Of a DNA stretch of 64,000 nucleotides, positions 5,791 through 52,609 are shown in pieces. The notes beneath the pieces are model-generated. The model had not been told where the DNA came from, did no database searches, and was given only the letters and a program-made list of their open reading frames with translations. How positions within the stretch are numbered: position 1 is the first letter of the stretch; each line of letters starts with the position of its first letter. The position numbers and the translations under genes are program-made. The stretch is from an uncultured bacterium (GTDB lineage Bacteria > Armatimonadota > Hebobacteria > CAIYQO01), in contig CAYYJR010000001.1 in the NCBI GenBank assembly GCA_964472305.1, positions 117,220 through 181,219 of the forward strand, given 5' to 3'.

Positions 5791-6878
5791 ACACTGGCAT
5801 TGCTGGTGAGCGAATCCCCGTTATGCGGATTGTTGTTGTGCATCCGCACGTGATAAGTATATGTTGTTGCCGGCATGACCGCGGTATCACGATATGCGGT
5901 GGTGCCGGCTGCCAACGTCGCGAGATCCCCCGCGCCATCCCGCGATACGATTATCGGATCTACCGAATCCTGATTGACGCTCCACGCGAGTGCCACCGCG
6001 GTAGAAGAAGTGGCCTGCGCCGTGAGACCGGTCGGCGATGGGGTGCGCGTATAGGCCAGAAACGTTACCGCGGTGCCATTCACGATGCCGTTTTGCGGAG
6101 ACCAGCCACCCTGGTTATGGTAATAGTAGGCGATGCCATCGACGAAGATCGGTCCTTGTGTCACGGATAAGACAGTATTATCCGGGAGATACCCAATAAT
6201 TGTGCTGCCGGGGGTTGAGTAGAACGGCAATTTCCCCCCGCCGTTCTGCGTAATGACCCAACAGGGTAAGGGTTCAAACGTAGCGGTAGGCAGTCCGCCG
6301 GTTTTGAACAGATTGCTGCCGTAAATCCAGCGGTTGGGATCGCCAAAGCGATCCTGGAAGCGGACGTTATCCTCGTGTGACGGATCATTGACATACAGAT
6401 CGTTCCCGGAGTAGGCGGTCAGCACGACGAAATGGATATTGGCCTCGTTCTGTCCAATCCGTGTTTCAAGCACGACCGGCAGATTCTGGTCGATCAGCGA
6501 TTTCAAATAGGTGAGATCGGGTGGAGTCGGTTGCCAGGTTCGGCTTTCCACCCAGGCCAATTGCACCGTGTTGGGATAATAGGTCATGACCGGCCATTGG
6601 GGTATATACGGACCATGAAATCCCCCGTTCCCCCGCAGCCAATCACATAACGTGCCAGGATCCAGCGCCACCCCGAGATAAGCCAGCGCCATCGCCCCCG
6701 AGGTGACGCCGCATCCCCAACTCGTCATGGTATAGCCGGGATCCCCCAGCGTTTTGGTCGCCCAGCGTGGATCGTTCTGCAGAAACTTCGGCACATTCAA
6801 CGAGCCCGCGTGGACCAGGGCTGTTGACAGGATGCAGAGGGTCAGCAGCGTCCCGACGACGCGTATGAATCCTCTCAT
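4323..6878 (-). CDS. secreted multidomain protein: signal peptide, papain-like C39-type peptidase domain (PF13529-like), SH3b-like, FN3, then five Y_Y_Y-like beta-sandwich domains
   Basis: 851-aa ORF. N-terminal signal (MRGFIRVVGTLLTLCILSTALVHA). A Q..D..W...GCGVTSGAMALAYLG catalytic-Cys motif with a later IHFVVL His. FN3-like PTGLTAQATSSTAVALAW. A repeated LRYQFWVGD...W motif typical of Y_Y_Y domains. Confidence 0.8.
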   Translation of the reverse strand: MRGFIRVVGTLLTLCILSTALVHAGSLNVPKFLQNDPRWATKTLGDPGYTMTSWGCGVTSGAMALAYLGVALDPGTLCDWLRGNGGFHGPYIPQWPVMTYYPNTVQLAWVESRTWQPTPPDLTYLKSLIDQNLPVVLETRIGQNEANIHFVVLTAYSGNDLYVNDPSHEDNVRFQDRFGDPNRWIYGSNLFKTGGLPTATFEPLPCWVITQNGGGKLPFYSTPGSTIIGYLPDNTVLSVTQGPIFVDGIAYYYHNQGGWSPQNGIVNGTAVTFLAYTRTPSPTGLTAQATSSTAVALAWSVNQDSVDPIIVSRDGAGDLATLAAGTTAYRDTAVMPATTYTYHVRMHNNNPHNGDSLTSNASVTTPGTLPLTSLTVGVTPATGVANQPTTVTAQATGGSDLRYQFWVGDSTATYWTLLRDYSTTSSIAWTPGTAGTFPLVVRVKEATSTKMYDLQNHLFYPVVTTTLSGVSLSTSPTSPQPTNTTVTLTATPVGGTAVQYQFVATTSAGVPTVLQSYATFPSVSWTPTTADTYSLQVLARETGTTQNPTIQAQQSYVISNTGMPLTAVKLVVTPSTGTVGNASTVTAQATGGDNLRYQFWVGDPTATNWTLLQDYSSSNTLAWTPGTAGTFPLVVRVKEATSTKMYDLQNHLFYPVVTTALSGVSLSTSPTSPQPTNTTVTLTATPVGGTAVQYQFVATTSAGVPTVLQSYATFPSVSWTPTTADTYSLQVLARETGTTQNPAIQAQQSYVISNTGMPLSAVKLVVTPSTGTVGNASTVTAQATDGYNLRYQFWVGDPTATIWTLLRDYSSSNTIAWTPSTAGTFPLVVRVKEVTSTNLYDLQNHLFYPVP

Positions 6879-7200
6879 TGCGATTCCTCCTCCTCAATTG
6901 ACGACCGGTTGAGACCGCGAGTTCGACTATCCGGACACCCGGACAGCCATCGCAGACAACCCGGATGAGGATTATCCTCATACCGGAGTTATTTATCCTG
7001 TTTCATCGCAATACTGGTCGTTGATCTCTCTATATTTGAACCAATCGCCGCACTATCCACACCTGGAATCCCCACACATGCTGCCGGGCATGTCGCATCA
7101 TCTGACGCGCAGCGTCAACTTGCCGTCAACAGCAACCGGTCGCCGCATTGCCGCGCATCCGTCGAAATAACACTGCGCCCAAGGTATCCACACCAACAGC

Positions 7201-7237
7201 AAAACGGCTCTGAATCTTGTGATTCAGAGCCGTTTTT
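7201..7237. terminator. perfect 16-bp palindromic hairpin flanked by A/T runs; bidirectional intrinsic terminator downstream of the tRNA operon
   Basis: aaaacggctctgaatc ttgt gattcagagccgtttt followed by t. Confidence 0.7.
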
Positions 7238-7249
7238 ACGCTCGAAAGT

Positions 7250-7325
7250 TGGTACGCCCGGCAGGGATCGAACCTGCGGCCTCTAGGTCCGCAACCTAGC
7301 GCTCTATCCGCTGAGCTACGGGCGC
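7250..7325 (-). tRNA. tRNA-Arg (anticodon reads GCG on my parse)
   Basis: 76-nt cloverleaf on the minus strand: GCGCCCG-TA-GCTC-AGCGGATA-GAGC-G-CTAGG-TTGCGGA-CCTAG-AGGCC-GCAGG-TTCGATC-CCTGC-CGGGCGT-A-CCA. Confidence 0.75.
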
Positions 7326-14347: not shown

Positions 14348-15730
14348 ATGGCAACTTCCGATCCGCGCGCCGTGGCCTTTACCGTGCTGCTGCGCATTGA
14401 AGAAGGCGCGGCGGCGAACGCGGCGCTGGAGCAGGCGCTAGAGCGCGCCGAACTGGAGCCGCGCGACCGCGGACTGGTGACCGAACTGGTCGATGGCACG
14501 CTGCGCTGGCAGGGACGCCTCGATTATCAACTCGGTAAACTGGTCGATCGCCCGCTCACCCACCTGCCGGCACCGATCCGCATCATCTTGCGGATCGGTG
14601 CGTACCAGTTGACACGGTTGGAGCGCATTCCCGCCCACGCCGCGGTGCACAGCGCGGTGGCGCTTGCTCGCCGCCATGGGCACGAAGGCACCGCGAAGCT
14701 GGTCAACGCGGTGCTGCGCAAGCTGGAGCGTGAAGGCGCCGCGTTGGCGTTTCCCGATCCCGCCTTCGATCCGGTGGGCTATCTGTCCACGGCCTATTCC
14801 CACCCGGCTTGGTTGGTGGAACGCTGGCTGACGCGTTTCGGGTTTGCGGAGACGGAAGCATTGCTGCTGCTCGACAACACCCCGCCACCCGTCACCCTGC
14901 GCATCAACCGGCGCTGGATCACCCGCGAAGGATTGATGGCGATCTTCGCGATGCACGAGGTCGAGGTGGCGCCGACGCCGATGTCGCCGTGGGGGCTGTA
15001 TCTGCTCGCTGGGGGCAACCCGCGCGAGTTGGACGAATATCGCGAGGGATTATTCAGCATCCAGGGTGAAGGCTCCATGCTGATGGTGGAGTTGCTGCGT
15101 CCCGGACGTAATCGCCAAGGCTGGGATCTGGCGTCCGGGGTGGGCGGCAAGGCCACCTACCTGGCGGAATGGACCGACGATTCCGGCTCCATCTTGGCCA
15201 CCGACACCTCGCAAGAGCGCATCAATATCCTGGCAAAGGAGATGGTGCGTCTGCAACTGGAGTCCATCAAGTTGTTCCGCGGCGACGCCCGCACCTTCCC
15301 GCTGGAGCCGGAAACGAAAGATTACGCGCTGGTGGATGCCCCCTGTTCCGGCACCGGCTCGCTGCGCCGTCAGGCGGACGCACGCTGGAAGAAAACCCCC
15401 GAGCAACTACCGGAGCTGGCCGTGCTGCAGCGCGAGTTGCTGGAAGCTGCCGCGCGCGCCATCAAGCCGGGCGGCATCATCCTCTACTGCACCTGTTCGC
15501 TGGAACCGGAAGAAAACGAGCAGGTGGTGGAGTCGTTCCTGGCCGACCACCCGGAATGGACGCTGGAGCAAGCCGGCGCCAAGCACCCCGGCCTGCCCGA
15601 CGACGCGCGCGATCCCGCTGGCTATGTGCGCCTGCTGCCCCAGCGCCATGGCACCGACGGCTTCTTCGCCGCGCGCCTGGTGAAAGCATTCCCCCCGGAG
15701 AGCCCCAGCGCTTCGCTGATTTCGGAATGA
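14348..15730 (+). CDS. rsmB: 16S rRNA (cytosine-C5)-methyltransferase RsmB/Sun family
   Basis: 460 aa with an N-terminal NusB-like domain and a C-terminal SAM methyltransferase domain carrying DAPCSGTGSLRRQAD and PGGIILYCTCSL motifs. Confidence 0.85.
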   Translation: MATSDPRAVAFTVLLRIEEGAAANAALEQALERAELEPRDRGLVTELVDGTLRWQGRLDYQLGKLVDRPLTHLPAPIRIILRIGAYQLTRLERIPAHAAVHSAVALARRHGHEGTAKLVNAVLRKLEREGAALAFPDPAFDPVGYLSTAYSHPAWLVERWLTRFGFAETEALLLLDNTPPPVTLRINRRWITREGLMAIFAMHEVEVAPTPMSPWGLYLLAGGNPRELDEYREGLFSIQGEGSMLMVELLRPGRNRQGWDLASGVGGKATYLAEWTDDSGSILATDTSQERINILAKEMVRLQLESIKLFRGDARTFPLEPETKDYALVDAPCSGTGSLRRQADARWKKTPEQLPELAVLQRELLEAAARAIKPGGIILYCTCSLEPEENEQVVESFLADHPEWTLEQAGAKHPGLPDDARDPAGYVRLLPQRHGTDGFFAARLVKAFPPESPSASLISE

Positions 15731-15820
15731 TCGACCGGTGCGTCACACGACGTAATCGCACGGAACAACGACGGTTCCGTGCGATTACGTCTTTTTGTTG
15801 ACTTGCCGGCGCTCCCTGGA

Positions 15821-16729
15821 CTATGTCGCGGCTTTTTCCGGCGCCCCTTGCGCAGCGAGCAAGCTGGCGAGTAGTTCGCGGCTGCCGTCGGGCACCAGCA
15901 CGAGTTGGGCGTCGCTGCTCAGCACGCGTTCCGTCTCCAGAATCTGGAACATCGCCTCGCACACTTCCTCGTCGCGCACAATTTCCGCCAGTGACTTGCC
16001 GATGACGGCCGGGCGCACGGTGGCGGCTTTGGCGAATTCGACGGCGGCGTTGCGTTCCGCGGTGCTGGTGATGACGCTCACCTGGTTAACGCCGTCCTGC
16101 TTGATAGCCGAGGTTACCTGGCGCAGACGGTTTACCACTTTGCTCTCGATTTGATGAATCATCTCCGCATCGCGGAAGTGCACTTTGCGGATGTAGATCG
16201 AGCCGAGCATGTAACCCCACTCGTGCGACTTGGGCGATACTTCGTCGCGCACCGTCTGGCTCATGGCGTGACGATCGACCATCATTTTATCCAGCGGCAG
16301 GTTGCTGAGACAGCGGACGGTCGAGTTGCTGACGTTGGCGGACAGCGATCCGCGCGGATCGGTGTTTTTGAACAGGTAGGCAACGGGATCGCTGATGAAC
16401 ATTTCATACCAGATGCCGATGCCCATCGGCGCGCCTTCTTCGGAATTCACCGGCTGGCTGCGCAGGTATTCCTGGTCCAACCGCATATCGAGGCGGTAGC
16501 ACTTGCCGAAGAAGTTCACGATAAGTGCGTATAACCCCATTTTGGGGAAAAGGAAGTGCAGGCCGGGCTCATCGATAATGGCGATGACGCGCCCGAACAG
16601 CACGAACACCTGACACTGGCGCTCTTCGACGACGGTGTAGAACCCGAACAATCGGAAAATCCCGAAGAGAATGGGGACGGCGATGGAACAGCCGATAAAC
16701 GCGATGATCGCGATAATGATGATCGTCAT
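15821..16729 (-). CDS. SPFH/band-7 domain membrane protein (stomatin/HflC-like)
   Basis: 302 aa with an N-terminal TM helix and an SPFH core. It overlaps the upstream SPFH gene by 1 nt. Confidence 0.7.
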   Translation of the reverse strand: MTIIIIAIIAFIGCSIAVPILFGIFRLFGFYTVVEERQCQVFVLFGRVIAIIDEPGLHFLFPKMGLYALIVNFFGKCYRLDMRLDQEYLRSQPVNSEEGAPMGIGIWYEMFISDPVAYLFKNTDPRGSLSANVSNSTVRCLSNLPLDKMMVDRHAMSQTVRDEVSPKSHEWGYMLGSIYIRKVHFRDAEMIHQIESKVVNRLRQVTSAIKQDGVNQVSVITSTAERNAAVEFAKAATVRPAVIGKSLAEIVRDEEVCEAMFQILETERVLSSDAQLVLVPDGSRELLASLLAAQGAPEKAAT

Positions 16730-17727
16730 TATTTCACCTCCTTGATGGTGCGGCGCGCCTTCTCCAGCAAGCCCAGTTTGACGTTGCGCACGTATAACGG
16801 CAGCACGGCCGGATTCGACATTTTCAGCGTGGAAAGCTGCGCCGCCAGCCGCGTCAGCGGTTCGACCTCCGCCTGCGCCTTCAGCGTCTCGATTTCCACC
16901 GCCCGCCTGGACTGTACGATCTTCTGATCGGCGGAGGCTTGCGCCAGGCTGATGTCGGACGACACCTGGTTGTGTGCGGTATTGATAGCTGCCAGCGCCG
17001 ATTCCACCTCCGGCGGCGGATCGATGCCGGTAATGAGCGACGCTTCCAGCACGATGCCATAACGTGCCGCGGAGGAGCGGCTTTCCAGATCCATATGGTC
17101 GTTCAAATCGCGCAGGTTCTTGCGCAGATCGTTGATGGAGATGCCTTGCACGATGGCGGAATCGGGTTGCATGTCTTCGGCAACCTCGACCGCACGTGCT
17201 GTCGGCGCCTCGAAGTTGGCGATGCGTTCGCGCAGCACGGAGACGAAGTAACCCATGATGTGCGCGATGGGGCTCTTCACCCCGAACAGATATGCATACA
17301 GATTGCGCTCGCTGACGCGATAGCGTATCTGGCCGGTGAGCCCGGTGTTCAATTGGTCCTTCGTCACCGCTTCCAATATGGTCCCGCCGTTGTTAGCCCT
17401 GGGCGCCAACGGATCGTATGCCATACTGACCGTTTCCGTGGCGATGGAGACTTTATGGATTTTCTCCCACGGCCATTTGAAATACGGCCCGCCGGGCATG
17501 ATGACGCGCATCTGCGGAAAGGCGTAACGCTGGCGTTCGTCATCGCGCAACGTATCCGCGATGGGATCGTCCAGGGTGGTAGAGTTGCCCACGCGCTGTG
17601 CCCGTCCGAATACCGTCTTTACCGCGCGTTGATTCTGATCAACCGAGTAAAAGCCGGTGAGAATGCAGCGGACGAAAAACCACGCGAGAGCGCCGATCAC
17701 GATTCCATTGAGGATTTCTTGCTCCAT
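16729..17727 (-). CDS. SPFH/band-7 domain membrane protein (HflK-like)
   Basis: 332 aa with an N-terminal TM helix and a VDQNQRAVKTVFGR band-7 signature. First gene of the two-gene pair. Confidence 0.75.
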   Translation of the reverse strand: MEQEILNGIVIGALAWFFVRCILTGFYSVDQNQRAVKTVFGRAQRVGNSTTLDDPIADTLRDDERQRYAFPQMRVIMPGGPYFKWPWEKIHKVSIATETVSMAYDPLAPRANNGGTILEAVTKDQLNTGLTGQIRYRVSERNLYAYLFGVKSPIAHIMGYFVSVLRERIANFEAPTARAVEVAEDMQPDSAIVQGISINDLRKNLRDLNDHMDLESRSSAARYGIVLEASLITGIDPPPEVESALAAINTAHNQVSSDISLAQASADQKIVQSRRAVEIETLKAQAEVEPLTRLAAQLSTLKMSNPAVLPLYVRNVKLGLLEKARRTIKEVK

Positions 17728-18178
17728 ACAAACCTCCTATAGTGTTGCATTATATTGTGAGGGGATGGCATGTTCGTCATGCCGGTTGCCAATCGGCAGT
17801 GTAACCTTCATCAGTTATCATACACCATATTTTCCGTGTGTGGGTGGATTCCTGATAATGGCATTTGGTCATCGGCTGGTCTCCTGCCTGGCGCAAACGC
17901 GAATCGCACCCTTCGCCGTTGCGAGGGAAGGCGTGTTGGGGAAAGCACGACAGTCCAGAACTACAGAACACACGTTTCTCAGACTGGAGAGGGCGCTGGC
18001 TCCGCAACCGGATTGTCTGCCGGAACATGACGCGCGCCTATTCACAACACCACATCTGCTGACCGTTGGTGCCCCGCATACCCTCGTGCCGCGTTGACAC
18101 TCGATCAACCGCGCCCGTATAATGCAGTCAGACCGTCGCTCGTTCACATTGCGGTCTACCGGGATCAGTGACGACCAT

Positions 18179-35333: not shown

Positions 35334-35803
35334 CGCATTACGATAACAGGCGATGCGGTTTGTCGTTTTCGCGTTCACTCCGGAGATGACGAAATGTGAA
35401 GCGTAACCTTCTCGGTGACCCCGGATACACCAGTATCCGGGGTCGCCTGACGTGAATCCCATCCCACTGGCCATCCGGAGATGGCCGGGAGCACCCCATC
35501 GGTCTTGATGCGTTGTTACCACTGTCACCCCTCCCATTTTTGAAACACTTTTGCAGTATTGGCACACCGACAGGGTCGCCCGGTGCTTGGCTGACGGTCA
35601 TTTTGCGAAAACGACCAATTCAAACCGCATCGGATGGGGAGCACTGTCAGGAAAGGTGTGAGCGAAAGCATGACGAATAGTCTTGCTTTGGTGAATGAGA
35701 TAAGCTGGCGTATTTCGTAATTTAGACCTCTTCATGTTATGTAATGCAGGAAATTGAGCGATGCCGCGGCACTCGCACAGCAGCAGCGAATGAGTTTACG
35801 GTA

Positions 35804-36478
35804 ATGCTGATGACAGATGGTACTCAAGATGCCGGATCGGTTCACACCTCGTCTGTGGCGGCTCCTTCAGGTAGAAAATTGGCGAATGAGGAGCAGCTCA
35901 CCTTGCTGGTACGTCGTTTTCAACTTGGCGATGGCCATGCATTCGAGACGCTGCTCGAACACGTCACTCCGTGCATCACTCCGATTATCTCCCGCTTCGC
36001 TCGTCATCACGCTGACGCCCAGGATGTTATGCAGGAAGTCGCGATTCAACTGTTGCGTGCATTACCGCGCTTTCGCAGTGAATGCCAGGTGTCAACTTTC
36101 ATCTATCGCGTGACGCTCAACGTCTGCATGAATTGTAAAAAGCGGTGGGCGCATACACCGTTGACATTCACCGATATTGCTTTCGCTGACACCGATGAAC
36201 CATGCGACCGCACACTATCCGTACCCCCGTATCCCACCCCCGAGCATGCTTTCATACAGAGAGAGCGGGAGGAAGTCTTGCACGCGTTGATTTACAGTCT
36301 CGATCCCAAGTTTCGCGCGGTCCTGGTCTTGACGGATATCTGTGGGATGAGTCAGCAGGAAATTGCCCAGATTATGCAAACCCCGCTGAACACCGTGAAA
36401 ACGCGACAGAAACGGGCGCGGGATGCGATGCGAAAAAAAATTCTCGCGCGGCAGGAACTATTTGACCGTGTCGGGTGA
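35804..36478 (+). CDS. RNA polymerase sigma-70 factor, ECF subfamily
   Basis: Region 2 (LVRRFQLGDGHAFETLL...QDVMQEVAIQLLRALPRF) and region 4 (DICGMSQQEIAQIMQTPLNTVKTRQKRAR). The track ORF starts at 35744; start chosen at MLMTDG, uncertain. Confidence 0.85.
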   Translation: MLMTDGTQDAGSVHTSSVAAPSGRKLANEEQLTLLVRRFQLGDGHAFETLLEHVTPCITPIISRFARHHADAQDVMQEVAIQLLRALPRFRSECQVSTFIYRVTLNVCMNCKKRWAHTPLTFTDIAFADTDEPCDRTLSVPPYPTPEHAFIQREREEVLHALIYSLDPKFRAVLVLTDICGMSQQEIAQIMQTPLNTVKTRQKRARDAMRKKILARQELFDRVG

Positions 36479-37611
36479 CGAAGGTGAGTATGCAGTGTCG
36501 CCAGATATCAGCACAGATCATCGCCTATCTGAAAGGTGAACTCGCGCGGGAGGAAGCCACGCGCGTTACATCGCATCTCGCCGCCTGCCCGCGGTGCCGT
36601 GATGAAGCACGCGTGCTGGGCAACGCTTTCAGCGAGATGGCACGGCTGCCGACCTTTCGCGTCACTTATGACATTCACGCGATCGAGGCGGGGGCCTGGC
36701 GTCAGCCACCGGCGGCGCCCATCCGCCAGTGGTGGAAACTTGTGCCCGCGGTCGCCTGTGCCGCCGTGATTGTCATTATGGGATTCCTGGTCTATCATCG
36801 CATCTCGACCACACGGATCGCGCAGCGTCCAAGGCTATCCCCGCGTTCGCCCGCGCCCGCGGTTGCGCCCCGGCCCAAGGTTCCCGTTCGTATGGGGCCG
36901 GACGAAAGTGATCAACCGCACATCGCGATGCGCCGGCACGAAGAGCGCCAGGTGGTGGCTGACAACCGGCGCCATGCACACCGGCAGGTGGCACCCCGGC
37001 AGCAACGCACGGCGCCACGCGCTGAACGGCAGCACGCGACCCCGCGTGGAACGGTACAGCATCCGCCGCGGCAGGAATCGGTTCCCCCCGTCGACGGGGA
37101 TGCGGTGATTGCGCAATACGTCGATACGCTGGCGCTGTGCATGACCCAATCCGATAATCCTCGCGCCTCAATTTCCTGTTCGATACTGCCGGTCGCCACT
37201 GCCGACGAACGGGATTTGCCCGTCGCTGACTCGCTGACCGCCGCGCTGGTGTGCGCGTTCAATGACCGGCATGTCACAATCGATATCAAGCGGTTGGCCC
37301 CGTTGGCGACGACGGCTGATCTGCAAACACTGACGCCGAATGCCGCCACCCTCGCACGCCTTGCCGACACGGTAACGGGTGATTATGTGATTGCCGGGCA
37401 CTTGAAAAAGGCGAAAGCCGGGTATGTGCTATCGCTCTATGCCTTCGACAAGCAGGGGCAGTCGATGGTCTTTGACGGCGACCATCCGATTTTATTGCCG
37501 TCCAGTGTGATACCCCGGTTCAGCGACATAATCAGTCACGGCATGATGCGCACGATCGCGATCGCATCCGCCGCGAAACACCGTCAACAATACCGGCAAT
37601 CATGCTCCTGA
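36475..37611 (+). CDS. anti-sigma factor with ZAS zinc-finger, one TM helix and a periplasmic TolB-N/LpoB-like C-terminal domain
   Basis: 4-nt overlap with the sigma gene. HLAACPRC ZAS motif. TM WWKLVPAVACAAVIVIMGFLVY. C-terminal ...TVTGDYVIAGHLKKAKAGYVLSLYAFDKQGQ pattern. Confidence 0.8.
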   Translation: MTKVSMQCRQISAQIIAYLKGELAREEATRVTSHLAACPRCRDEARVLGNAFSEMARLPTFRVTYDIHAIEAGAWRQPPAAPIRQWWKLVPAVACAAVIVIMGFLVYHRISTTRIAQRPRLSPRSPAPAVAPRPKVPVRMGPDESDQPHIAMRRHEERQVVADNRRHAHRQVAPRQQRTAPRAERQHATPRGTVQHPPRQESVPPVDGDAVIAQYVDTLALCMTQSDNPRASISCSILPVATADERDLPVADSLTAALVCAFNDRHVTIDIKRLAPLATTADLQTLTPNAATLARLADTVTGDYVIAGHLKKAKAGYVLSLYAFDKQGQSMVFDGDHPILLPSSVIPRFSDIISHGMMRTIAIASAAKHRQQYRQSCS

Positions 37612-37684
37612 TCCGGGAACTATTTTCCATCGCCGGCGTACAAAGCAAGCAAATCAACGTTATCTATCCCAAGGAGGTAGCAGC

Positions 37685-38659
37685 ATGAGATTCGTAGCTC
37701 GAATACACAGGGGTCTGCTCATTTCCGTCCTGGCACTTTGCGGTCTGACCGGTGCGTTCGCGCAGGCGGCGACCACGACGAAGGTGTCCGTTGAAGTCAC
37801 CAATGTGGTGGATGTCATCGGCGACGGAAAGATCGACTGGTCAAAAGAAGAGATTCGCGCACGGGGCATCGGTTTTGCGCCCAAGTTCGCGAAAACCCCC
37901 GGTCAGATGACCGTGCTGGCGCGGGAAGCGGCACTGGTCGCGGCGGAACGCAACCTGCTGAAGGTAATAAATGGCGTGCATGTCACGTCGGAAACGACGG
38001 TCGAAAACCTGGAAGTGACGCAGGATATCATCAAGACAAGTGTGAAAGGTCTCCTGAAAGGCGCGGTGATCGTCAGCGAGAAGCCGTTTGGCGAGAATGG
38101 CTACGAAGTGGTGCTGGCCGTGAATCTTTATGACGAGAAAAATGCTCTGTCGCAGAGCATTGATCTCCCCGTCCAGTTCAAAGCGGCGAATCCGGGTGTC
38201 ACGATTGTCCCGACCACGCCGAAGGAAGATCCGAAGTCCGACATTACGCCCGTGATTACGCCCCCGGTTACCCCATCGGTTACGCCCTCCGCTCCCGAAC
38301 AGCAGCCGGAGCGTTATACCGGACTCGTCATCGATTGCCGCGGGCTCGGTCTGGCGCGCTCCATGTGTCCCCGCATCCTCGATCAGACTGGGGGGAATCT
38401 CTGGAGTACCTCGATGGTGTCTGTGGAACTTGTCAACGAACGGGGTATTGCGGGTTACTTCACGACGCTGGATGATCCTGCCTTGCTTGATCGCGTCGGC
38501 AAACACCCGCTGGTGGTGACGGCGCTGCGACTTGGGGGCGGCAAGCAATTCAAAACGGATGCGATTGTCAGTCCGGCGGATGCGGAGTTGATCCGTACGG
38601 AAAATCAACAGGCCTTGTTCCTCGACAAATTGAATGTCGCCTTCCTGACCGAAAATTAA
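37685..38659 (+). CDS. secreted LPP20-like domain protein with Pro/Thr linker and unknown C-terminal domain (cluster gene 1)
   Basis: RBS GGAGG. Signal peptide with a possible lipobox (LALCG). N-terminal domain ...VHVTSETTVENLEVTQDIIKTSVKGLLKGAVIV...YEVVLAV fits the LPP20/FlgP pattern. Confidence 0.7.
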   Translation: MRFVARIHRGLLISVLALCGLTGAFAQAATTTKVSVEVTNVVDVIGDGKIDWSKEEIRARGIGFAPKFAKTPGQMTVLAREAALVAAERNLLKVINGVHVTSETTVENLEVTQDIIKTSVKGLLKGAVIVSEKPFGENGYEVVLAVNLYDEKNALSQSIDLPVQFKAANPGVTIVPTTPKEDPKSDITPVITPPVTPSVTPSAPEQQPERYTGLVIDCRGLGLARSMCPRILDQTGGNLWSTSMVSVELVNERGIAGYFTTLDDPALLDRVGKHPLVVTALRLGGGKQFKTDAIVSPADAELIRTENQQALFLDKLNVAFLTEN

Positions 38660-38701
38660 CCGCGCCGTGGCGCGTAGCGAATGATTGAAAAGGAGTATCC
38701 C

Positions 38702-39514
38702 ATGAAACGATATGTTCTCTGGCTCAACTGTCTGGTGCTGTTGCTGGCTGCGGTGAGCGCGCTGGCGGCGCCCGCCGAAAAAGTGAACCCGACACCAAAA
38801 TGTAATAAGCGTGCCATCCTCTGGCGCTCCCTTGATATGCCGGCGAATGCCCATGACGGCGATATCTGGATCAATCCCATCGACGGCATGGAGATGGTGT
38901 ATATCGGCAAGGGTTCCTTCCGCATGGGCAGCAATGAAGTCGCCGATGAGCGACCCTATCATAAAGTCAGCACCAAAGCATATTGGATCGCCAGGTACGA
39001 GGTGAGCGTAGCGCAATATCGCAAATTCAGCGAAATCACCAAACACCCGATGGCGGCTATGCCGGATGTGCGCTGGCTGGAGAATTCGCCGATCGTGAAC
39101 GTCGATTGGAACGACGCGGTCGCTTACGGCAAGTGGGCGAACGGCCGCCTGCCGTCCGAAGCCGAGTGGGAAAAAGCGGCGCGCGGGCGAAAAAGCCAGA
39201 TTTATCCCTGGGGCAATGCCTGGGATGCCGCTCGCTGCAATAACGGGTTGGAAGGGAAGAATGCGCCGATGAAAGTCGGCAGCTTCCCCGCCGGCGTCAG
39301 TTTCTATGGCGTGATGGATATGGCGGGTAATGTCAGCGAGTGGTGTGACGGCGTCTATGAGAAGCAAGGTGATCTCATGGACTATCGCGTTCTCCGCGGC
39401 GGCTCCTGCCATGACATCACCTCGAACGCGTATCGCGCCAGCCGGCGCGATTACCTGTCCCCCGCCACCCGCGCGAATGTCATCGGCATGCGCTACGTGA
39501 TGGATGCCCGGTAA
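38702..39514 (+). CDS. secreted FGE-sulfatase (SUMF1/GldK-like fold) domain protein (cluster gene 2)
   Basis: RBS AAGGAG. Signal peptide MKRYVLWLNCLVLLLAAVSALAAPA. Family hallmarks: RGGSC, NLGFR-like and WEKAARG/YPWGN motifs. Confidence 0.75.
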   Translation: MKRYVLWLNCLVLLLAAVSALAAPAEKVNPTPKCNKRAILWRSLDMPANAHDGDIWINPIDGMEMVYIGKGSFRMGSNEVADERPYHKVSTKAYWIARYEVSVAQYRKFSEITKHPMAAMPDVRWLENSPIVNVDWNDAVAYGKWANGRLPSEAEWEKAARGRKSQIYPWGNAWDAARCNNGLEGKNAPMKVGSFPAGVSFYGVMDMAGNVSEWCDGVYEKQGDLMDYRVLRGGSCHDITSNAYRASRRDYLSPATRANVIGMRYVMDAR

Positions 39515-39578
39515 CGACGAAGCGCAGCGCGGAAACAGGAAGCTACCGCTCGCTTCTCGAATGCTGAAAGGAAATACC

Positions 39579-40751
39579 ATGCGACACTATATTCATTGTG
39601 TCCCATTTTGGCGGATGCTCGCTGCCGTTCTCCTCACCCTGATGCTGGTGTTTGCCGTGAGCCTTGCCGTCATGGCGCAGGACGGCAAGGCGGAGTCCGA
39701 GTTCAAAACGGTCGTCGCGCAGGGCGTCGGCGCCGGTCCGGATCGTGCCAAAGCCCGCGACGATGCGATACAGGATGCCCAGCGCAAAGCGGTGGAACAG
39801 GGATTGGGCCTGTATATTAAGTCCGAGACGGTGGTGAACAACCTGGAACTGGTTTCCGACACGATTTATAAAGACTCCGCCGGTTTCGTGCACACGTATA
39901 CCGTGACCGCCGAGAATTATGATGACGCCAAGGACCTGTACTGGGTAAAAATCACTGCCAAGGTGTCCCTGCAGCGGTTGGAAAATCGGCTGGACGATCT
40001 GTATGACAAGCTGAAGATCGCCGGAAATCCGCGCATCATCATGGCGCTCAACGGCACCGACAGCCTGCGCGATCCCGACGGCATCGTGAATGCGTTGACC
40101 AGCGAGATGGTGGAGAAAGGCTATAAAGTCATCGACGAGGATCAGCTCACGTCCGTGCGGCAGAAAGACGCGTTGCGCCTGATTCGCCAGGGGGAAGTCG
40201 ATGCCAATACGGTGATGCTGCTGCAGGATAAAGCGGACATCATCATCACCGGCAAGGTGTCGGCGGATAATCCCGAGCGCATCATGGACGATCCGGCTAC
40301 CTTCTCGCAGAAGGTGACCTTGGACGCGAAAATCATCCGGACGGATACCGCCCAGATACTGGGCGCCAAACGCGGCCTCGGGGTGGGCGCGGCATTCTCG
40401 ACCAAGGCGGCGCTGGAAGCCGCGGAAGATAAAGTCGGCGCCGACTATTTGAGCAAGAATCAACGCACGCTGTTGCGCGCCGTGCTCGACCCGTGCAAGG
40501 AATATACGGTCAAAGTGGCGCCCTGCACCTTCGCCCAGTTGTCCGCCGTCGAGAGCAAGCTCATCCAGTCGCGCTTCGTCCGCCAGGCGGATGCGCGCTT
40601 CGAGGAAGGCTATGGCGTGCTGACGGTCTCGTTCACCGGCAATGCCAAAACGCTGGCCATGCACCTGGAATCGCATATCGGGAAAGAAATTCGCCTGAAG
40701 GTGATTTCCGTCACCGGGGTGACGGTGATGGTGAAACCCGTCGCCGAGTGA
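39579..40751 (+). CDS. secreted LPP20-like plus TolB-N/CsgG/LpoB-like two-domain protein (cluster gene 3)
   Basis: RBS GAAAGGAAAT. N-terminal TM/signal sequence. GVGAGPDRAKARDDAIQDAQRKAVEQGLGLYIKSETVV LPP20 pattern. A central domain ending in an (I/V)xGxVS motif. The track ORF starts earlier, at 39504. Confidence 0.7.
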   Translation: MRHYIHCVPFWRMLAAVLLTLMLVFAVSLAVMAQDGKAESEFKTVVAQGVGAGPDRAKARDDAIQDAQRKAVEQGLGLYIKSETVVNNLELVSDTIYKDSAGFVHTYTVTAENYDDAKDLYWVKITAKVSLQRLENRLDDLYDKLKIAGNPRIIMALNGTDSLRDPDGIVNALTSEMVEKGYKVIDEDQLTSVRQKDALRLIRQGEVDANTVMLLQDKADIIITGKVSADNPERIMDDPATFSQKVTLDAKIIRTDTAQILGAKRGLGVGAAFSTKAALEAAEDKVGADYLSKNQRTLLRAVLDPCKEYTVKVAPCTFAQLSAVESKLIQSRFVRQADARFEEGYGVLTVSFTGNAKTLAMHLESHIGKEIRLKVISVTGVTVMVKPVAE

Positions 40752-40965: not shown

Positions 40966-41934
40966 ATGATCCGTATAATCGTATCATTGCTGCTGCTGGC
41001 AGTCGGCCTATCGGCGTTCGCACAAGGCTCGGGGGATTTGCGTAGCGGAGAAAGGCCGTTTAATTATGAATTCGCTAAACGAGTTACCGGTGCCGGATGG
41101 ACTTACAAAGGTGAAGCTACCATTACTGGAATACTCTTTGATAATTACGGATTGATCGAGCATATATATCAAAATGTCGATTGGATAACTTTCAATATTA
41201 CCGGTTGGGATCACTTCGTCGCATATATCGGCATCTCGGATGATAAAACAGGCAATAGCGATATTGTCATCGAGACAGACGGCACGCAGGTTTTCTCACG
41301 AAAGGTCACTGCCGGCGACAGGGCCGTTGCCATCGATATCCCGCTCACCGGGCGCAAGACGATGACGATACGTGCGAAAACCCCGGCGATTTTCGCTGAT
41401 CCCAAGTTGGTGAAAGGAAACCCAACACAACCTCCTGTACAACAACCATCAACCTCATCAACTACAATACCCCCTTCACAGCCGGCCACCTTCGTGGTTG
41501 ATCCCAGCGATCTCGATAAACTCGCTTCGGCTCTGCGTAAGCGCGTAGACAACAAGCCGGAATTGAAGACGAAACTGGATAACGGTTTCATGGCGGTGAT
41601 GACGTTCAACCTGATCGACATCCCATCTGCATCTATCTCATTGAATGTCATCGAGGATTTGTCCACCCGCATGATTAACGCCGATTTTCAGCTTGTCGAG
41701 CGCGGGCAACTCGACAAGGCGTTGAAAGAGTTGAAGATACAAGATTCCGCCTTGATCGACCAGGCGACGGCGCAAAAACTCGGCCAACTTACCGGCTGCA
41801 ACTATATCCTCGTCGGCAGCGTCTCCGACCGCGGGCAGTTCATCGTGATGAACGCGCGCATCCTGGAGACGGCAACCGGCAAAGCCATCGCCGCCGAGAG
41901 CGTGGAGTGCCGGAAGATTCCGATCAATCGATGA
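40966..41934 (+). CDS. secreted protein with lower-GC N-terminal beta-sandwich-like domain, Pro/Ser/Thr linker, and C-terminal TolB-N/CsgG/LpoB-like domain (cluster gene 4)
   Basis: RBS AAGGAGG. Signal peptide. C-terminal AVMTFNLID...VERGQLDKALKELKIQ...AQKLGQLTGCNYILVGSVSDRGQFIVMNARILETATGKAIA. Confidence 0.7.
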   Translation: MIRIIVSLLLLAVGLSAFAQGSGDLRSGERPFNYEFAKRVTGAGWTYKGEATITGILFDNYGLIEHIYQNVDWITFNITGWDHFVAYIGISDDKTGNSDIVIETDGTQVFSRKVTAGDRAVAIDIPLTGRKTMTIRAKTPAIFADPKLVKGNPTQPPVQQPSTSSTTIPPSQPATFVVDPSDLDKLASALRKRVDNKPELKTKLDNGFMAVMTFNLIDIPSASISLNVIEDLSTRMINADFQLVERGQLDKALKELKIQDSALIDQATAQKLGQLTGCNYILVGSVSDRGQFIVMNARILETATGKAIAAESVECRKIPINR

Positions 41935-41974: not shown

Positions 41975-43555
41975 ATGGGAAGGGTGTGGTTTGTTGTCGC
42001 CATGGTGATGGCCGGCGCGGTTTTCGTGCAGGCAGCGTCTGCGCAGGATGTCATGCGCACCGTGGCGGTCGCCATGGTGGAGCAGATTGTCGGGAATCCC
42101 GATGTCCAGCGGTTGCAGGGGAAGACGGTGGCCGTCGCGCGGTTTCGCAATCGCGGCACGGATGAAAATCTTGACGTGTCGGCCTTGCAGGATAAAGTCA
42201 TCACCGCGCTTGTGAAGGCGAAACTTTTCACCGTGGTCGAGCGCGAGCAACTCAACACGGCGCTGCAACAGTTGAAGATCGACGTTGCCAGCGGATTGAT
42301 CGACCGAAACGAGCAGAAGGAACTGGGCAAGTTTCTCTCTGCGGATTATCTGTTGATCGGCGTCGTATCCGGCGACAGCCTGCACCCGTCGGTGGACGCG
42401 CGCCTGATGAAAATCGAAACGGGCGCGCTGGTCGCGGCGGCCGAGTATCCGGCGGAGAACGGGCGCGGCGGCCTCCCGGGGGATCCCGGTCCCGCGGAGC
42501 CGACGCCCGCGGCGGTGAAGTCGACCATTCAACTAATTTCCTACAATACCAGCATCTTCACACTGTCTTCGACCGCCGACAAAGAGGCGGATGCTGGCAG
42601 CGATGCGATTCGCTGGCTGGTTGACCAGCGTATTTTCGCCGATGCCAAAGACGTGCTCGAACGCTGGACGCCCGAGATCACCGGCAAAATCTATCGCAGT
42701 CCCGCGCGGCTGGTCGCGAAAGTCACGCCCCGCGCGGACGCCTATTACCTGGATGTCAATTTCGCCCAGATGATGCGCGAACTGGTTTTCATTATCTTCG
42801 GCAAAGTCACTCCGCGTATCGCGGTCGATACATCGGAAACCATCCTGCGCCGCAATCCCCCCGATCCGGCGGTGAAAACCGTCATCGAAGGCGCATTCCT
42901 CAAATACGGCTTCCAAGTGGTTGATACCGACCGGGCAAAAATGGCGCTGTTGCGCGAGGCATTGCGCCAGACCGAGGCTGGCGACAGCCTGGCGCCCAAT
43001 CTGGTGAAACAGTATCTGGGCGAGGTGCAGAGCGATATCATCGCCGTGGGCGACAGTTTCGCGGAAGAACGCGCCGAGCGCGACGGATTCGATGCGCGCA
43101 TAGAGTTCAAACTCGTTGAGGTAAACACCGGGCGAGTGCTCGCGTCGATTGAGAATACCGCCACCCTGTCGCGAAAGGATTATCCAGCGGTGGATGTGAC
43201 GTCGAGCGTACTCGGCAAGTTGGTATTGCAGCGCGCCGCGGAGGGGACGACCATTCGCATGTGCGCCGACATCCTGAAGTCATACGGCCAACCGGTCTAC
43301 GCCGTGCGCGTGTGGCATATCGGCAGCCTGGCCAATAAGCGGACGATCGAGGAGTGCCTGACGGAGCAGTTGCCCGGCGCGACGGTGACGACAACGTCGT
43401 TAGATTTACGGGCGACGAACTGCGCGCTCTTCAGCGTCATGACGAAACGGACGGCTGACCAGGTTGCCGAAGCGTTGGAAAAGGTTCCCGGCCTTCACGT
43501 TGCCGTTACTGGCATCGACTGCCGCTCGATTGTGTGTGAAATACCGGTTAAATAG
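41975..43555 (+). CDS. secreted protein with N-terminal TolB-N/CsgG/LpoB-like domain and further degenerate copies of the same fold (cluster gene 5)
   Basis: RBS GGAGG. Signal peptide. VAVARFRN...VVEREQLNTALQQLKID...LGKFLSADYLLIGVVSGD. Later repeats (...DIIAVGDSF...LVEVNTGRVLAS). Confidence 0.7.
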   Translation: MGRVWFVVAMVMAGAVFVQAASAQDVMRTVAVAMVEQIVGNPDVQRLQGKTVAVARFRNRGTDENLDVSALQDKVITALVKAKLFTVVEREQLNTALQQLKIDVASGLIDRNEQKELGKFLSADYLLIGVVSGDSLHPSVDARLMKIETGALVAAAEYPAENGRGGLPGDPGPAEPTPAAVKSTIQLISYNTSIFTLSSTADKEADAGSDAIRWLVDQRIFADAKDVLERWTPEITGKIYRSPARLVAKVTPRADAYYLDVNFAQMMRELVFIIFGKVTPRIAVDTSETILRRNPPDPAVKTVIEGAFLKYGFQVVDTDRAKMALLREALRQTEAGDSLAPNLVKQYLGEVQSDIIAVGDSFAEERAERDGFDARIEFKLVEVNTGRVLASIENTATLSRKDYPAVDVTSSVLGKLVLQRAAEGTTIRMCADILKSYGQPVYAVRVWHIGSLANKRTIEECLTEQLPGATVTTTSLDLRATNCALFSVMTKRTADQVAEALEKVPGLHVAVTGIDCRSIVCEIPVK

Positions 43556-46248: not shown

Positions 46249-46445
46249 AGCCCATAGTAGGTCAGAGGAAGATCGCATCTCGAAACGGCGGTATCTCCCT
46301 TACTGATCGTCAAACGCTTTCGGTTATGGCGGTAGCTCGTACATCTTAGAATGGGCGCAAAGGAAATTTAGACAACTATTCGCCTCTTCACCCACGATGC
46401 CGGCATGGCCACATTCCAAGCTTTACTTTGAAGGAGGTACAACAC

Positions 46446-48260
46446 ATGAGAAAGTGGATCGGAGCCTTCGTGGTCTCCCTCCTGATCGCCTCCGCTTTCC
46501 CAGTATTCGCGGAAGGGCCATTCTCGGATGTCCCCGAGACGCACTGGGCTGCCAAAGCGGTTGCTGATCTTGCACAGGCCGGCATTCTGGAAGGCGTGCG
46601 CGTCGGAACGACGGCACAATTCCAGGGCACACGTCCCATGACCCGTTTTGAGATTGCCATGGCACTGGCGCGCGTGCTCGAAATTGTCGAAGGCGTGAAG
46701 CCTTCCACGCCAGGCAAACAACTCACCATGCAGGACGTGATCAACGAGATTCAGAACAACCCGCAGGTGCAGGCGAAACTGCGCGGTCCCGCCGGTCCCG
46801 CCGGCGCTCCGGGTGCTGTCGGTCCTGCCGGCGCTCCGGGTGCTCCGGGCGCGATTGGTCCTGCCGGTCCTGCCGGTACTCCTGGTACACCAGGCATCGC
46901 CGGTCCCGCCGGTCCTGCCGGTCCTGCCGGTCCTGCCGGCCCTCCGGGAAAAGGTTTGACTGACGAGCAGATTGCGCAGTTAACCAAATTGCTGACCACC
47001 TTCGGGCCGGAAATCGCCGCGGTGCGCGGCGACATCCGCAGCTTGCAGGAGCGCGTCACTGCGCTGGAAGCGGCCGTGGGCAACAAAACCCCGCAATTGC
47101 GCACCAGCGTGCACGGCGCCATGCGCTTCGGCGTTCAGGGAAGCGGACTGGATTTCAGTGCCGGCGCTGACTCGAACACTAATGGCATTGAAGACTCGGT
47201 TGAAGCGATCGGCGCCCTTCCGGACTTTGCGAAAGACGCATCGAAGTCGTCGCGCTTCGGCGTTTACCAGACTGACGTGAATTTCGACGGTTCCGTGTCG
47301 GAGAATCTGGCCGGGCACCTGACCATGCGCATCGTCAGCCCGATCTCGGCAACGCCCGTCGGCAATCCTGTATACTCCGGAACTATCGTAGCCGACAATC
47401 TGCAGTTGTGGGATTGGTACGCGACCTTCAACGCGCCCCAGATCTTCGGTCAGAAGATCGCCGTGACGGCTGGTCGGCACTCGACCATCATCGCCCAGGG
47501 CCTGGCGGTCGACACCAATCGGCGCCCGCTGGCCGGCATCTCGCTTGACAGCGGCACCGGCAACTATACCTACGGCGCGAACTTCTCGACCAATGACGGC
47601 CACAGCCCGGTCATGTATGGCTACCTGGGCTACAATATCGGCGATTTGTCCGATACCCTGACGAACTGGAACGTGGTTGGCAATTACATGCCGCGCGGTC
47701 TTGCGGGCGAGAGCGTATGGAACATCGGCGCGGAAGGCAACATTGCCGGCTATCGCGTGTTCGGTGAATATGCGCATGAGAATCTAGGTGCCATCAGTGG
47801 TTTGTTCAGCGATTTGGATAATCGCGGGGCACTCGTCATCGGCGCTGACGTGCTGAATAACTGGAACGGTCTGAATATGACCGCGCGGATCGGGAAAATT
47901 GGAGCCGGATACACCAACACCACCGGCATTCTGAATCCGTATACTTCGGCGAACGCGTTCGATCTCGATTGGGTCGATCGTCCGCTCTTCCTGAGCCAGA
48001 CCAATGTCACCGATGGGTGGGAAACTGATTTCCATTACACCTACGGGAAAGACACCCTGCTGCGCGCTCGCATTTATGGCGGGTTCGGCGATCAGAATGC
48101 CGGGGCGTCGGGCGATACCGCCCTCATCCTGTCGGCGAAGAAACCCATCGCCACTGGTGTCGCCGCCAATCTGCTGTGGGGTTACCGCGGCATTTCCGTG
48201 CCCACCGATAGCGCGAGCAACCTGCAAGTGTTGCGCGCCGGTCTTGAATTCACGCTGTAG
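46446..48260 (+). CDS. outer-membrane protein: signal peptide, SLH domain, collagen-like Gly-X-Y segment, coiled coil, C-terminal beta-barrel-like region (OmpM/Slp-like)
   Basis: RBS GGAGG. SLH motif [25 protein letters not shown]...[13 protein letters not shown]. 19 GPA/GAP triplets. A coiled-coil stretch [41 protein letters not shown]. The C-terminal ~400 aa has an alternating hydrophobic pattern. Confidence 0.8.
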
Positions 48261-51961: not shown

Positions 51962-52609
51962 TCAGGCGATTACCATCATGCTCTTCAGCGACTTGCCGAT
52001 TTTGCGTTTGGCGCGCTGCAGGGCGTTGTCGATGGACTTCACCCGGCGATTCAACTCCACCGCGATTTCCTGATACGATTTGCCTTCCAGATGGCTGCGC
52101 AGCACGGCGCTTTCCAGGCTGGACAGGTCACGGCGAATGCGGCGGCGCAAATCGTCGGAGAATTGCTGGGTAATCACCACTTCTTCGGGATCGCTGGTGG
52201 CTGTTTCGGCGAGTGTATCGAGCAGGGTGCGGTCGGAATCGGAGTCGAACAGATTGGTATGCAGGCTGACGTAGGAATTGAGCGGAATGTGTTTCTGGCG
52301 AGTGGCGGCCTTGATGGCGGTGAAGATCTGACGGCTGATACATAACTCGGCGAAGGCACGGAACGGCAGCATGCGGTCGTTGCGGAAATCGCGGATCGCT
52401 TTGAACAGGCCGATCATGCCTTCCTGCACGATGTCTTCATGGTCAGCGCCGACCAGGAAATAGGAGCGCGCTTTTCCTTCAACGACACTGCGGTATTTAC
52501 AGAGAAGATGCTCGGTGGCCAATTGCGAGCCTTCCTTGGCATAGATGACGACCTCTTCATCGCCCATTCCGTGGAAATTGACGAAGTGATCGCGTATCGT
52601 CAAAAACAT
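51962..52609 (-). CDS. sigH: RNA polymerase sigma factor SigH (sigma-H, early sporulation/stationary-phase type)
   Basis: KARSYFLVGADHEDIVQEGMIGLFKAIRDF and FRAFAELCISRQIFTAIKAATRQKHIPLNSYVSLHTNLFDSDSDRTLLDTL closely match my recollection of Bacillus SigH region 2 and the following segment. Confidence 0.8.
   Translation of the reverse strand: MFLTIRDHFVNFHGMGDEEVVIYAKEGSQLATEHLLCKYRSVVEGKARSYFLVGADHEDIVQEGMIGLFKAIRDFRNDRMLPFRAFAELCISRQIFTAIKAATRQKHIPLNSYVSLHTNLFDSDSDRTLLDTLAETATSDPEEVVITQQFSDDLRRRIRRDLSSLESAVLRSHLEGKSYQEIAVELNRRVKSIDNALQRAKRKIGKSLKSMMVIA

Follow-up and report, generated by a model that had tools for sequence, protein, structure and literature searches.

In the RseA/RseB-sigmaE system of Escherichia coli, a sigma factor of the extracytoplasmic function (ECF) type is co-transcribed with a single-pass anti-sigma factor. 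The periplasmic domain of RseA and RseB shield against the site-1 protease, which is the classical logic of regulated proteolysis in ECF systems, and the sigma-dependent promoter rseA P3 drives the anti-sigma factor. FlgM acts as an export checkpoint and is in this respect a relative of the idea that assembly can be sensed, and RsgI stands for the sensing of a substrate. LpoB, the activator of PBP1B, spans the periplasm from the outer membrane on a long flexible linker. The RsgI anti-sigma factors of Clostridium thermocellum carry sensor modules (CBM3, GH10, PA14) whose domain families also occur among the components of the cellulosome (PMC10328401). In FecR-type anti-sigma factors, a partner protein bound at the periplasmic domain shields it from proteolysis (PMC11637429). 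The locus analyzed in this study lies in a stretch of 64,000 nucleotides from an uncultured bacterium of the phylum Armatimonadota (the window; all positions refer to it) and encodes, on one strand and head to tail, an ECF sigma factor, a transmembrane anti-sigma factor of the ZAS type and six exported proteins, here called g1 to g6. The C-terminal domain of the anti-sigma factor very probably adopts the LpoB/FlgO/TolB-N/PelC fold and belongs, as a distant relative, to the same superfamily as domains of g3, g4 and g5.

An earlier note on this DNA, made from the sequence alone, had called signaling through a sensor homologous to the regulated proteins an unusual logic for an ECF system. This does not quite hold, as the RsgI anti-sigma factors provide a partial precedent (PMC10328401). 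Like RsgI, the window protein is a transmembrane anti-sigma factor with a C-terminal extracytoplasmic module behind a long spacer, and the family of this module is common to the regulated complex: the sensor domain and the domains of g3, g4 and g5 in the adjacent operon fall into one superfamily. However, RsgI pairs with SigI and not with an ECF sigma factor, its N-terminal domain is not of the ZAS type, its sensors bind the polysaccharide substrate rather than the complex itself, its host is Gram-positive, and its autoproteolytic Asn-Pro periplasmic domain was not found in the window anti-sigma factor. With RseA/RseB-sigmaE the locus shares the ECF sigma factor and the co-transcribed single-pass anti-sigma factor, and a candidate sigma-dependent promoter inside the sigma gene, upstream of the anti-sigma gene, resembles the situation at rseA P3. 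RseA is not a ZAS protein, though, and its periplasmic domain has an unrelated fold and is guarded by RseB, whereas the window protein carries an LpoB/FlgO-like sensor on a tether of about 100 aa.

LpoB (4q6l, 4q6z, 2mii) has the same globular fold as the window domain (Foldseek E = 5e-5 to 1e-3, TM 0.55-0.59) and likewise presents its head on a long tether. It differs in being an outer-membrane lipoprotein that is anchored N-terminally and has no signaling domain, whereas the window domain forms the C-terminus of an anti-sigma protein that is held in the inner membrane and is devoid of a lipobox. LpoB proper was excluded as an identity given the missing lipobox, the opposite anchoring and the lack of a match to TIGR02722 and to Pfam LpoB. 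The outer-ring proteins FlgO, FlgP and FlgT and the ring lipoproteins PelC and CsgG find likenesses in the cluster itself, namely FlgP in g1, FlgT_N plus an LpoB-like domain in g3, and FlgO/CsgG in g4 and g5. Flagellar FlgO was rejected as an identity because no flagellar genes occur in the flanks examined; T9SS genes are missing there as well. As in the FecR type, binding of a partner at the periplasmic domain is proposed here to govern how the anti-sigma factor is exposed to proteolysis. The periplasmic fold of FecR differs, however, and FecR is partnered by a TonB-dependent transducer, of which the window locus has none.

Fold of the C-terminal domain and its relation to the cluster proteins

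An exhaustive phmmer search of 1.84 billion representatives returned about 15 full-length homologues of the anti-sigma factor with 24-58% identity, referred to as orthologues below. For modeling and profiles of the C-terminal domain, 14 sequences were aligned. This domain of 137 aa is the best-conserved part of the protein, with a mean column identity of 48% compared to 35% overall, and contains the invariant motifs ADTLTA and FDGxHPxLLP. An AlphaFold2 model based on the 14-orthologue alignment reached a pLDDT of 86.3 and a pTM of 0.82 and has the topology a0-b1-a1-b2-a-a2-b3-b4-b5, whereas a single-sequence model of the whole anti-sigma factor was uninformative (pLDDT 43). When the domain model was compared with the PDB using Foldseek, all of the 15 top matches belonged to one fold family comprising TolB-N, LpoB, FlgT, GNA1162, CT253 and PelC (probability 1.00, E = 4e-5 to 5e-3, query-normalized TM-scores 0.39-0.59). 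Among them are the N-domain of TolB (7mx5, E = 4e-5), the C-domain of LpoB (4q6l, E = 5e-5; 4q6z, E = 1e-4), LpoB (2mii, E = 1e-3), FlgT (3w1e, E = 2e-4) and the LPHT ring that contains FlgT (8z5n, E = 5e-4), GNA1162 (4hrv, E = 2e-4), CT253 (6uxc, E = 8.5e-4) and PelC (5t0z and 9h80, E = 1e-3 to 5e-3). Several of these structures were deposited as ring assemblies, such as the PelC dodecamer and the FlgT-containing LPHT ring. The predicted, not solved, structure of the C-domain hence matches solved LpoB/FlgO/CsgG/TolB-N-like members.

In terms of sequence, the C-domain of the window protein matches no Pfam family, the LpoB model included. FlgO is the best Pfam family for the sensor domain and was found below threshold in 5 of the 14 orthologues (best score 17.9 bits, cutoff 22.6) in the same register as in the hhalign comparisons described below. 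Against PDB sequences, the profile of the C-domain gave no more than three marginal matches (E of about 0.4-2), among them PelC (5t0z). A word-index search yielded no homologues with the C-domain alone and one protein with the C-domain alignment, and a genome scan gave no match with the full anti-sigma protein and one Armatimonadota metagenome-assembled genome with a reduced alignment.

Pairwise searches (blastp and phmmer) of the anti-sigma C-terminus against g1-g6 found nothing. The absence of a significant profile-profile relationship, which the earlier note had named as refuting, was not what hhalign returned: the C-domain aligned to a 22-sequence profile of the LpoB-like domains of the cluster with P = 6.3e-5 (probability 64%) and to the N-terminal domain of g5 with P = 4.8e-4. 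The C-terminal domain of g4 followed with P = 0.012, and both individual alignments have the same register (residues 82-125 of the C-domain against 86-129), which the alignment to the 22-sequence profile shares. No signal was obtained for any g1 domain, the N-terminal domain of g4, the N-terminal, middle and C-terminal domains of g3, or the middle and C-terminal domains of g5. The global alignment of the C-domain with the cluster profile is collinear and pairs every secondary-structure element, and its score of 28.1 was reached by none of 200 column shuffles (mean 11.6, SD 2.1). A cluster-derived hidden Markov model (HMM) scored 19.7 bits on one orthologue (P = 2.3e-8) and, in a full-length match, 14.1 bits on a second one (P = 1.2e-6). 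Within the cluster, hhalign connected the N-terminal domain of g5 with the C-terminal domain of g4 (2.6e-22) and the middle domain of g3 (1.2e-6), and the middle domain of g5 with the middle domain of g3 (1.2e-9). Based on these links and on the significant Pfam matches of g4 and g5 to LpoB, CsgG and FlgO, an LpoB-like fold is assigned to the middle of g3, the C-terminus of g4 and both the N-terminus and the middle of g5. The family profile of g5 also matches LpoB (4q6l, 4q6z, 2mii) by sequence with E = 5e-7 to 4e-6, and CsgG as well. Overall, the direct similarity between the anti-sigma factor and the cluster proteins appears weak but consistent, and homology at the level of the superfamily is well supported because of the structural matches and the intermediate sequences.

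These results refine several statements of the earlier note. The peptide that it quoted, AATLARLADTVTGDYVIAGHLKKAKAGYVLSLYAFDKQGQSMVF, is present at aa 290-333 of the anti-sigma open reading frame (ORF) and lies within the conserved globular domain. The sensor had been placed at 36900-37611; this range does include the domain at 37099-37509, but 36900-37098 encodes linker and 37510-37608 an unconserved tail. A fold common to the first five cluster genes had been proposed, which is confirmed for g3, g4 and g5 at superfamily level and rejected for g1 and g2, since hhalign found nothing for the domains of g1, a FlgP/LPP20-like protein with one further domain, and g2 is an FGE-sulfatase-fold protein. 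In fact g1, g2 and g6 do not share the LpoB-like fold. The term paralogous is appropriate insofar as the domains belong to the same structural superfamily. The relationship is distant, though, with the cluster domains no nearer to the C-domain than generic FlgO, and this equidistance gives no hint that the domain arose from the cluster genes by recent duplication.

The sigma/anti-sigma pair and its candidate promoters

The anti-sigma factor and the neighboring sigma factor are a bona fide ZAS/ECF pair. The ZAS motif C8...H34-LAA-C38-PR-C41 (H-x3-C-x2-C plus an upstream Cys) can be read directly from the translation, and judged by its sequence the protein spans the membrane once and falls into class I (ZAS). 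The ORF opens with a GTG, and the ATG at 36490 (M6) is the probable start; the database protein P0001 is identical to the window protein from M6 on. The start codon of the sigma gene is uncertain, with a 244-aa ORF in the window and a 191-aa gene call beginning at about 35903 on the identical contig. The end of the sigma gene (36478) overlaps the anti-sigma ORF, and the adjacent, co-oriented pairing is kept in all loci examined. The linker that follows the transmembrane helix varies between 69 and 118 aa with 6-29% Pro among the orthologues and has a net positive charge in every full-length sequence. Being Pro-rich, unconserved and of low complexity, and modeled with low confidence, this tether of about 100 aa looks disordered. 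A disulfide between conserved cysteines was also considered and dropped because C235 alone is invariant and a possible partner occurs in only 7 of the 14 sequences. Ten other long ZAS anti-sigma factors from the homologue search contained no LpoB/FlgO-like domains in a Pfam scan, and a literature search revealed nothing relevant on anti-sigma factors with LpoB-, TolB- or CsgG-like sensors. As far as these searches show, an LpoB/FlgO-like sensor is new among anti-sigma factors.

All 10 of 10 loci keep the genes for the sigma factor, the anti-sigma factor, g1 and g3 in synteny, including those with the most divergent anti-sigma homologues (identity down to 26%). An FGE-sulfatase gene is usually near in these loci, as are g5-like genes. 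The exhaustive search recovered no anti-sigma homologue outside the context of the g1/g3 cluster. According to family scans of the window and the related loci, no protease or RseB-like gene is found within the conserved cluster.

A conserved motif, GGGAACT(A/T)TT-N12-13-(T/G)(A/T)AC(T/A)AA, which we take to resemble RpoE-type promoters of the GGAACTT type, precedes g1. A position weight matrix (PWM) was built from nine sites, and a scan of the whole window with a 12-bit threshold returned just two sites, the one upstream of g1 (37615) and one that falls within the 3'-terminal part of the sigma gene (36453). The latter ends 6 nt short of the anti-sigma ATG and overlaps the sigma codons ...QELFDRVG-stop. 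The motif upstream of g1 also occurs in the related loci L002, L003, L005, L007, L009 and L010, and the internal motif is found at the matching position in L002, L003, L005, L006, L009 and L010, and in L002, L003, L005, L006 and L010 it again lies 5-6 nt from the conserved Met. Seven of the sites in related loci are independent of the construction of the matrix. In addition, the motif precedes a relocated g4-like gene in L003 and a divergently placed g5-like gene in L007. The internal site suggests a sigma-dependent, possibly leaderless, anti-sigma transcript. Its GAA-CTN-TTY codons are AT-rich for a genome of 60% GC. Upstream of the sigma gene itself, no GGAACT motif was found (35334-35743 of the window and the related loci); the sigma gene thus does not seem to be under its own control through this motif, in contrast to the usual ECF operon. 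The conserved ECF-type motif together with the synteny makes it likely that the sigma factor regulates the cluster genes. This agrees with the earlier assumption of such a regulation, as the motif links the sigma factor to these genes and the pairing is kept in each of the ten loci.

Table 1. Features of the locus, with positions in the window.
Feature	Position	Strand	Evidence
ECF sigma factor gene	35744..36478	+	Pfam Sigma70_r2 + r4_2; NCBIfam TIGR02937 80.8 bits (cutoff 42.9)
ECF-type promoter-like motif AGGAACTATTTGACCGTGTCGGGTGACGAAG inside sigma 3' end	36453..36483	+	PWM 18.8 bits
ZAS-type transmembrane anti-sigma factor	36475..37611	+	zf-HC2 (PF13490) 39.7 bits (cutoff 22.2), aa 8-42
Single putative transmembrane helix, ~aa 88-108	36736..36798	+	Hydrophobic stretch KLVPAVACAAVIVIMGFLVYH, conserved in orthologue alignment
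Pro/Arg/Gln-rich linker, ~aa 109-208, poorly conserved	36799..37098	+	Orthologue alignment; low pLDDT in single-sequence model
Conserved C-terminal alpha/beta domain, probably LpoB/FlgO/TolB-N-like, aa 209-345	37099..37509	+	AlphaFold2, Foldseek, hhalign, FlgO matches
ECF-type promoter motif GGGAACTATTTTCCATCGCCGGCGTACAAAG upstream of g1	37615..37645	+	PWM 29 bits
g1: exported FlgP/LPP20-like protein with second C-terminal domain	37685..38659	+	9hmf_C E = 1.1e-6; 5jir_B E = 1.4e-3
g2: exported FGE-sulfatase-fold protein, PorK/GldK-like	38681..39514	+	Pfam FGE-sulfatase E = 3.6e-46; GldK 75 bits, below cutoff
g3: FlgT-like; SHS2/FlgT_N-like N-domain, LpoB-like middle, C-terminal domain	39504..40751	+	FlgT_N weak; hhalign
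g4: NPCBM domain and C-terminal CsgG/FlgO/LpoB domain	40966..41934	+	Pfam CsgG 1.8e-8, FlgO 2.6e-7, LpoB 8e-7
g5: N-terminal LpoB/CsgG domain, second divergent copy, C-terminal domain	41975..43555	+	Pfam LpoB 9e-15, CsgG 1e-11
g6: exported, cluster-conserved protein, 665 aa	43568..45565	+	Pfam: no family match; orthologues in L003, L007, L009

What the tethered domain may sense

In the mechanism that we propose, the sigma factor would drive two GGAACT-type promoters, of which one directly precedes the anti-sigma gene and the other g1, and its activity would raise its own inhibitor together with exported FlgP-, FlgT- and FlgO-like proteins. The tethered C-domain would sense by binding protein and would extend through the periplasm from the inner membrane, mirroring LpoB, which does so from the outer membrane. 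Its head would dock onto a scaffold of cluster proteins or onto free subunits thereof, the occupancy of the head would set the susceptibility of the anti-sigma factor to regulated proteolysis and hence the release of the sigma factor, and the outcome would be a homeostatic control of assembly. Taken as a whole, a tethered LpoB/FlgO-like sensor of cluster assembly is the explanation that we consider best, and we adopt it tentatively, at slightly less than even confidence. The docking and assembly-sensing steps as such are possible but invite more doubt than trust. A more specific form, in which the anti-sigma factor is a tethered pseudo-subunit that docks into or caps a non-flagellar periplasmic ring or disk of FlgP-, FlgT- and FlgO-like proteins and the release of the sigma factor reports the assembly state, seems unlikely. 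That the sensor domain interacts homotypically with the cluster proteins, or is incorporated among them, is pure conjecture. To our knowledge, an assembly checkpoint that works through recognition between domains of the same superfamily has not been described for ECF systems.

Several observations weigh against this explanation. Neither LpoB nor TolB-N works by homotypic assembly; both bind unrelated partners. Measured from the C-domain, the generic Pfam FlgO model is about as near as the cluster domains are. With the cluster-derived HMM, the window protein itself scores only 2.8 bits (P = 0.004), and among the 596 ORFs of the window g4 and g5 come no higher than 4th and 5th (E of about 2). 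The motifs ADTLTA and HPxLLP are private to the anti-sigma domain and absent from the g4 and g5 domains, which argues against a simple co-polymerization through a common interface. Genes of the g4/g5 type are not neighbors in every locus and none is present in the L010 neighborhood. Just past the transmembrane helix, the linker of the window protein contains 18% Arg with a net charge of +10, and such an Arg-rich segment is unusual for a translocated region in view of the positive-inside rule. Finally, coding constraint is a confounding factor at the internal promoter-like site, since this site shares its nucleotides with the conserved ELF-stop codons.

Some of these points would be readily accommodated if the C-domain were a generic envelope sensor whose target is not part of the cluster but is, for example, peptidoglycan, a synthase of it or a component of the outer membrane. 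The fold shared with g3-g5 would then be incidental and the cluster would be the output of an envelope-stress regulon rather than the sensed object. Proteins with unrelated partners, LpoB and TolB-N, are indeed among the top structural matches, and the equidistance from generic FlgO and the cluster domains, the private invariant motifs and the L010 neighborhood without g4/g5-type genes all fit this possibility. Against it stand the tie of the anti-sigma family to the g1/g3 cluster, seen at each of the ten loci examined, and the lack of any homologue in another context among 1.84 billion representatives, and we regard it as doubtful. The same private motifs bear differently on the possibility that the C-domain has no ligand and passively shields the linker or the juxtamembrane region from a site-1 protease, with the signal being sensed by the protease or another protein. 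Such a shield would conform to the classical logic of regulated proteolysis in ECF systems, and a long exposed linker would be accessible to proteases. Yet the invariant motifs are of a surface type and the domain is highly conserved, which suggests a specific interface, and the conserved cluster contains no gene for a protease or an RseB-like protein, making a purely protective role improbable.

The last possibility is that there is no homology. The pairwise searches were negative, the score of the window protein with the HMM was marginal and only 14 sequences could be aligned, as would be expected if an amphipathic helix plus hairpin had matched by chance and the AlphaFold2 fold were an artifact of a shallow alignment. 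Against this stand the confident model, the assignment of all 15 top Foldseek matches to one fold family, the agreement of the register across hhalign, Pfam FlgO and HMM matches, and the failure of all 200 column shuffles to reach the observed score. A lack of homology is hence very hard to reconcile with the data. A tethered sensor of cluster assembly thus remains the explanation that we tentatively prefer.

Cluster proteins and their surroundings

The Pfam matches of g1, of g3 and of the sensor domain all stay below the gathering thresholds, and the LPP20 match of g1 is weak. FlgP forms rings in the flagellar motor of C. jejuni (PMC12222027), and the entry code 9hmf of the g1 match in Table 1 appears in that report. 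The C-terminal domain of g1 (aa 196-319, 38270-38659) has a weak match to 5jir_B, annotated as 'OOP family OmpA-OmpF porin' (E = 1.4e-3). A second g1 paralogue of about 290-310 aa is located between g2 and g3 in many related loci but not in the window. The N-domain of g3 (aa 90-159, 39771-39980) showed a marginal match to the anti-sigma-I factor RsgI9 (7sjy_A, E = 0.045), which probably reflects resemblance to an SHS2-like fold or chance. The g4-like gene of L003, with its promoter motif at 6211, appears split into two overlapping ORFs (145 and 194 aa, 6324-7296), and a frameshift or an assembly error is therefore suggested. Homologues of g6 in other loci are longer (813-881 aa; 17207-19648 in L003 and 4672-7317 in L007) and contain a Cu_amine_oxidN1 domain, which g6 of the window lacks. 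No evident lipobox was seen in the cluster proteins, whose signal peptides were checked by eye only.

Large fusion proteins combining Peptidase_C14 (caspase-like), CsgG-like and PEGA domains are encoded near the cluster in L003 (from 21017 onward) and in a JGI locus (15261-17765), the one in L003 with an additional FGE-sulfatase domain. In the window, a 610-aa protein is encoded downstream of g6 (46428-48260). It has an SLH domain, Gly-X-Y repeats of collagen type at about aa 115-175 and a segment resembling a coiled coil, and its porin-like C-terminus weakly matches the 'somb' iron-uptake porin. By its domain composition this protein may be a tether between the outer membrane and the cell wall with a collagen spacer. 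A second ECF-type sigma factor gene is located about 15 kb downstream on the minus strand (51962-52609).

The analysis reveals a conserved set of FlgP-, FlgT-, FlgO- and PorK-like exported proteins in Armatimonadota outside of a flagellar context. This gene set hints at a scaffold of the periplasm or the outer membrane that has not been described so far, in a diderm phylum that has received little study. Should the idea of binding be wrong, the anti-sigma factor would still represent a new type of sensor domain for ZAS anti-sigma factors. If the tethered domain does bind the products of its own regulon, the locus would be an ECF system that, using a domain from the superfamily to which the parts of an envelope structure belong, gauges the assembly state of that structure by a simple feedback design.

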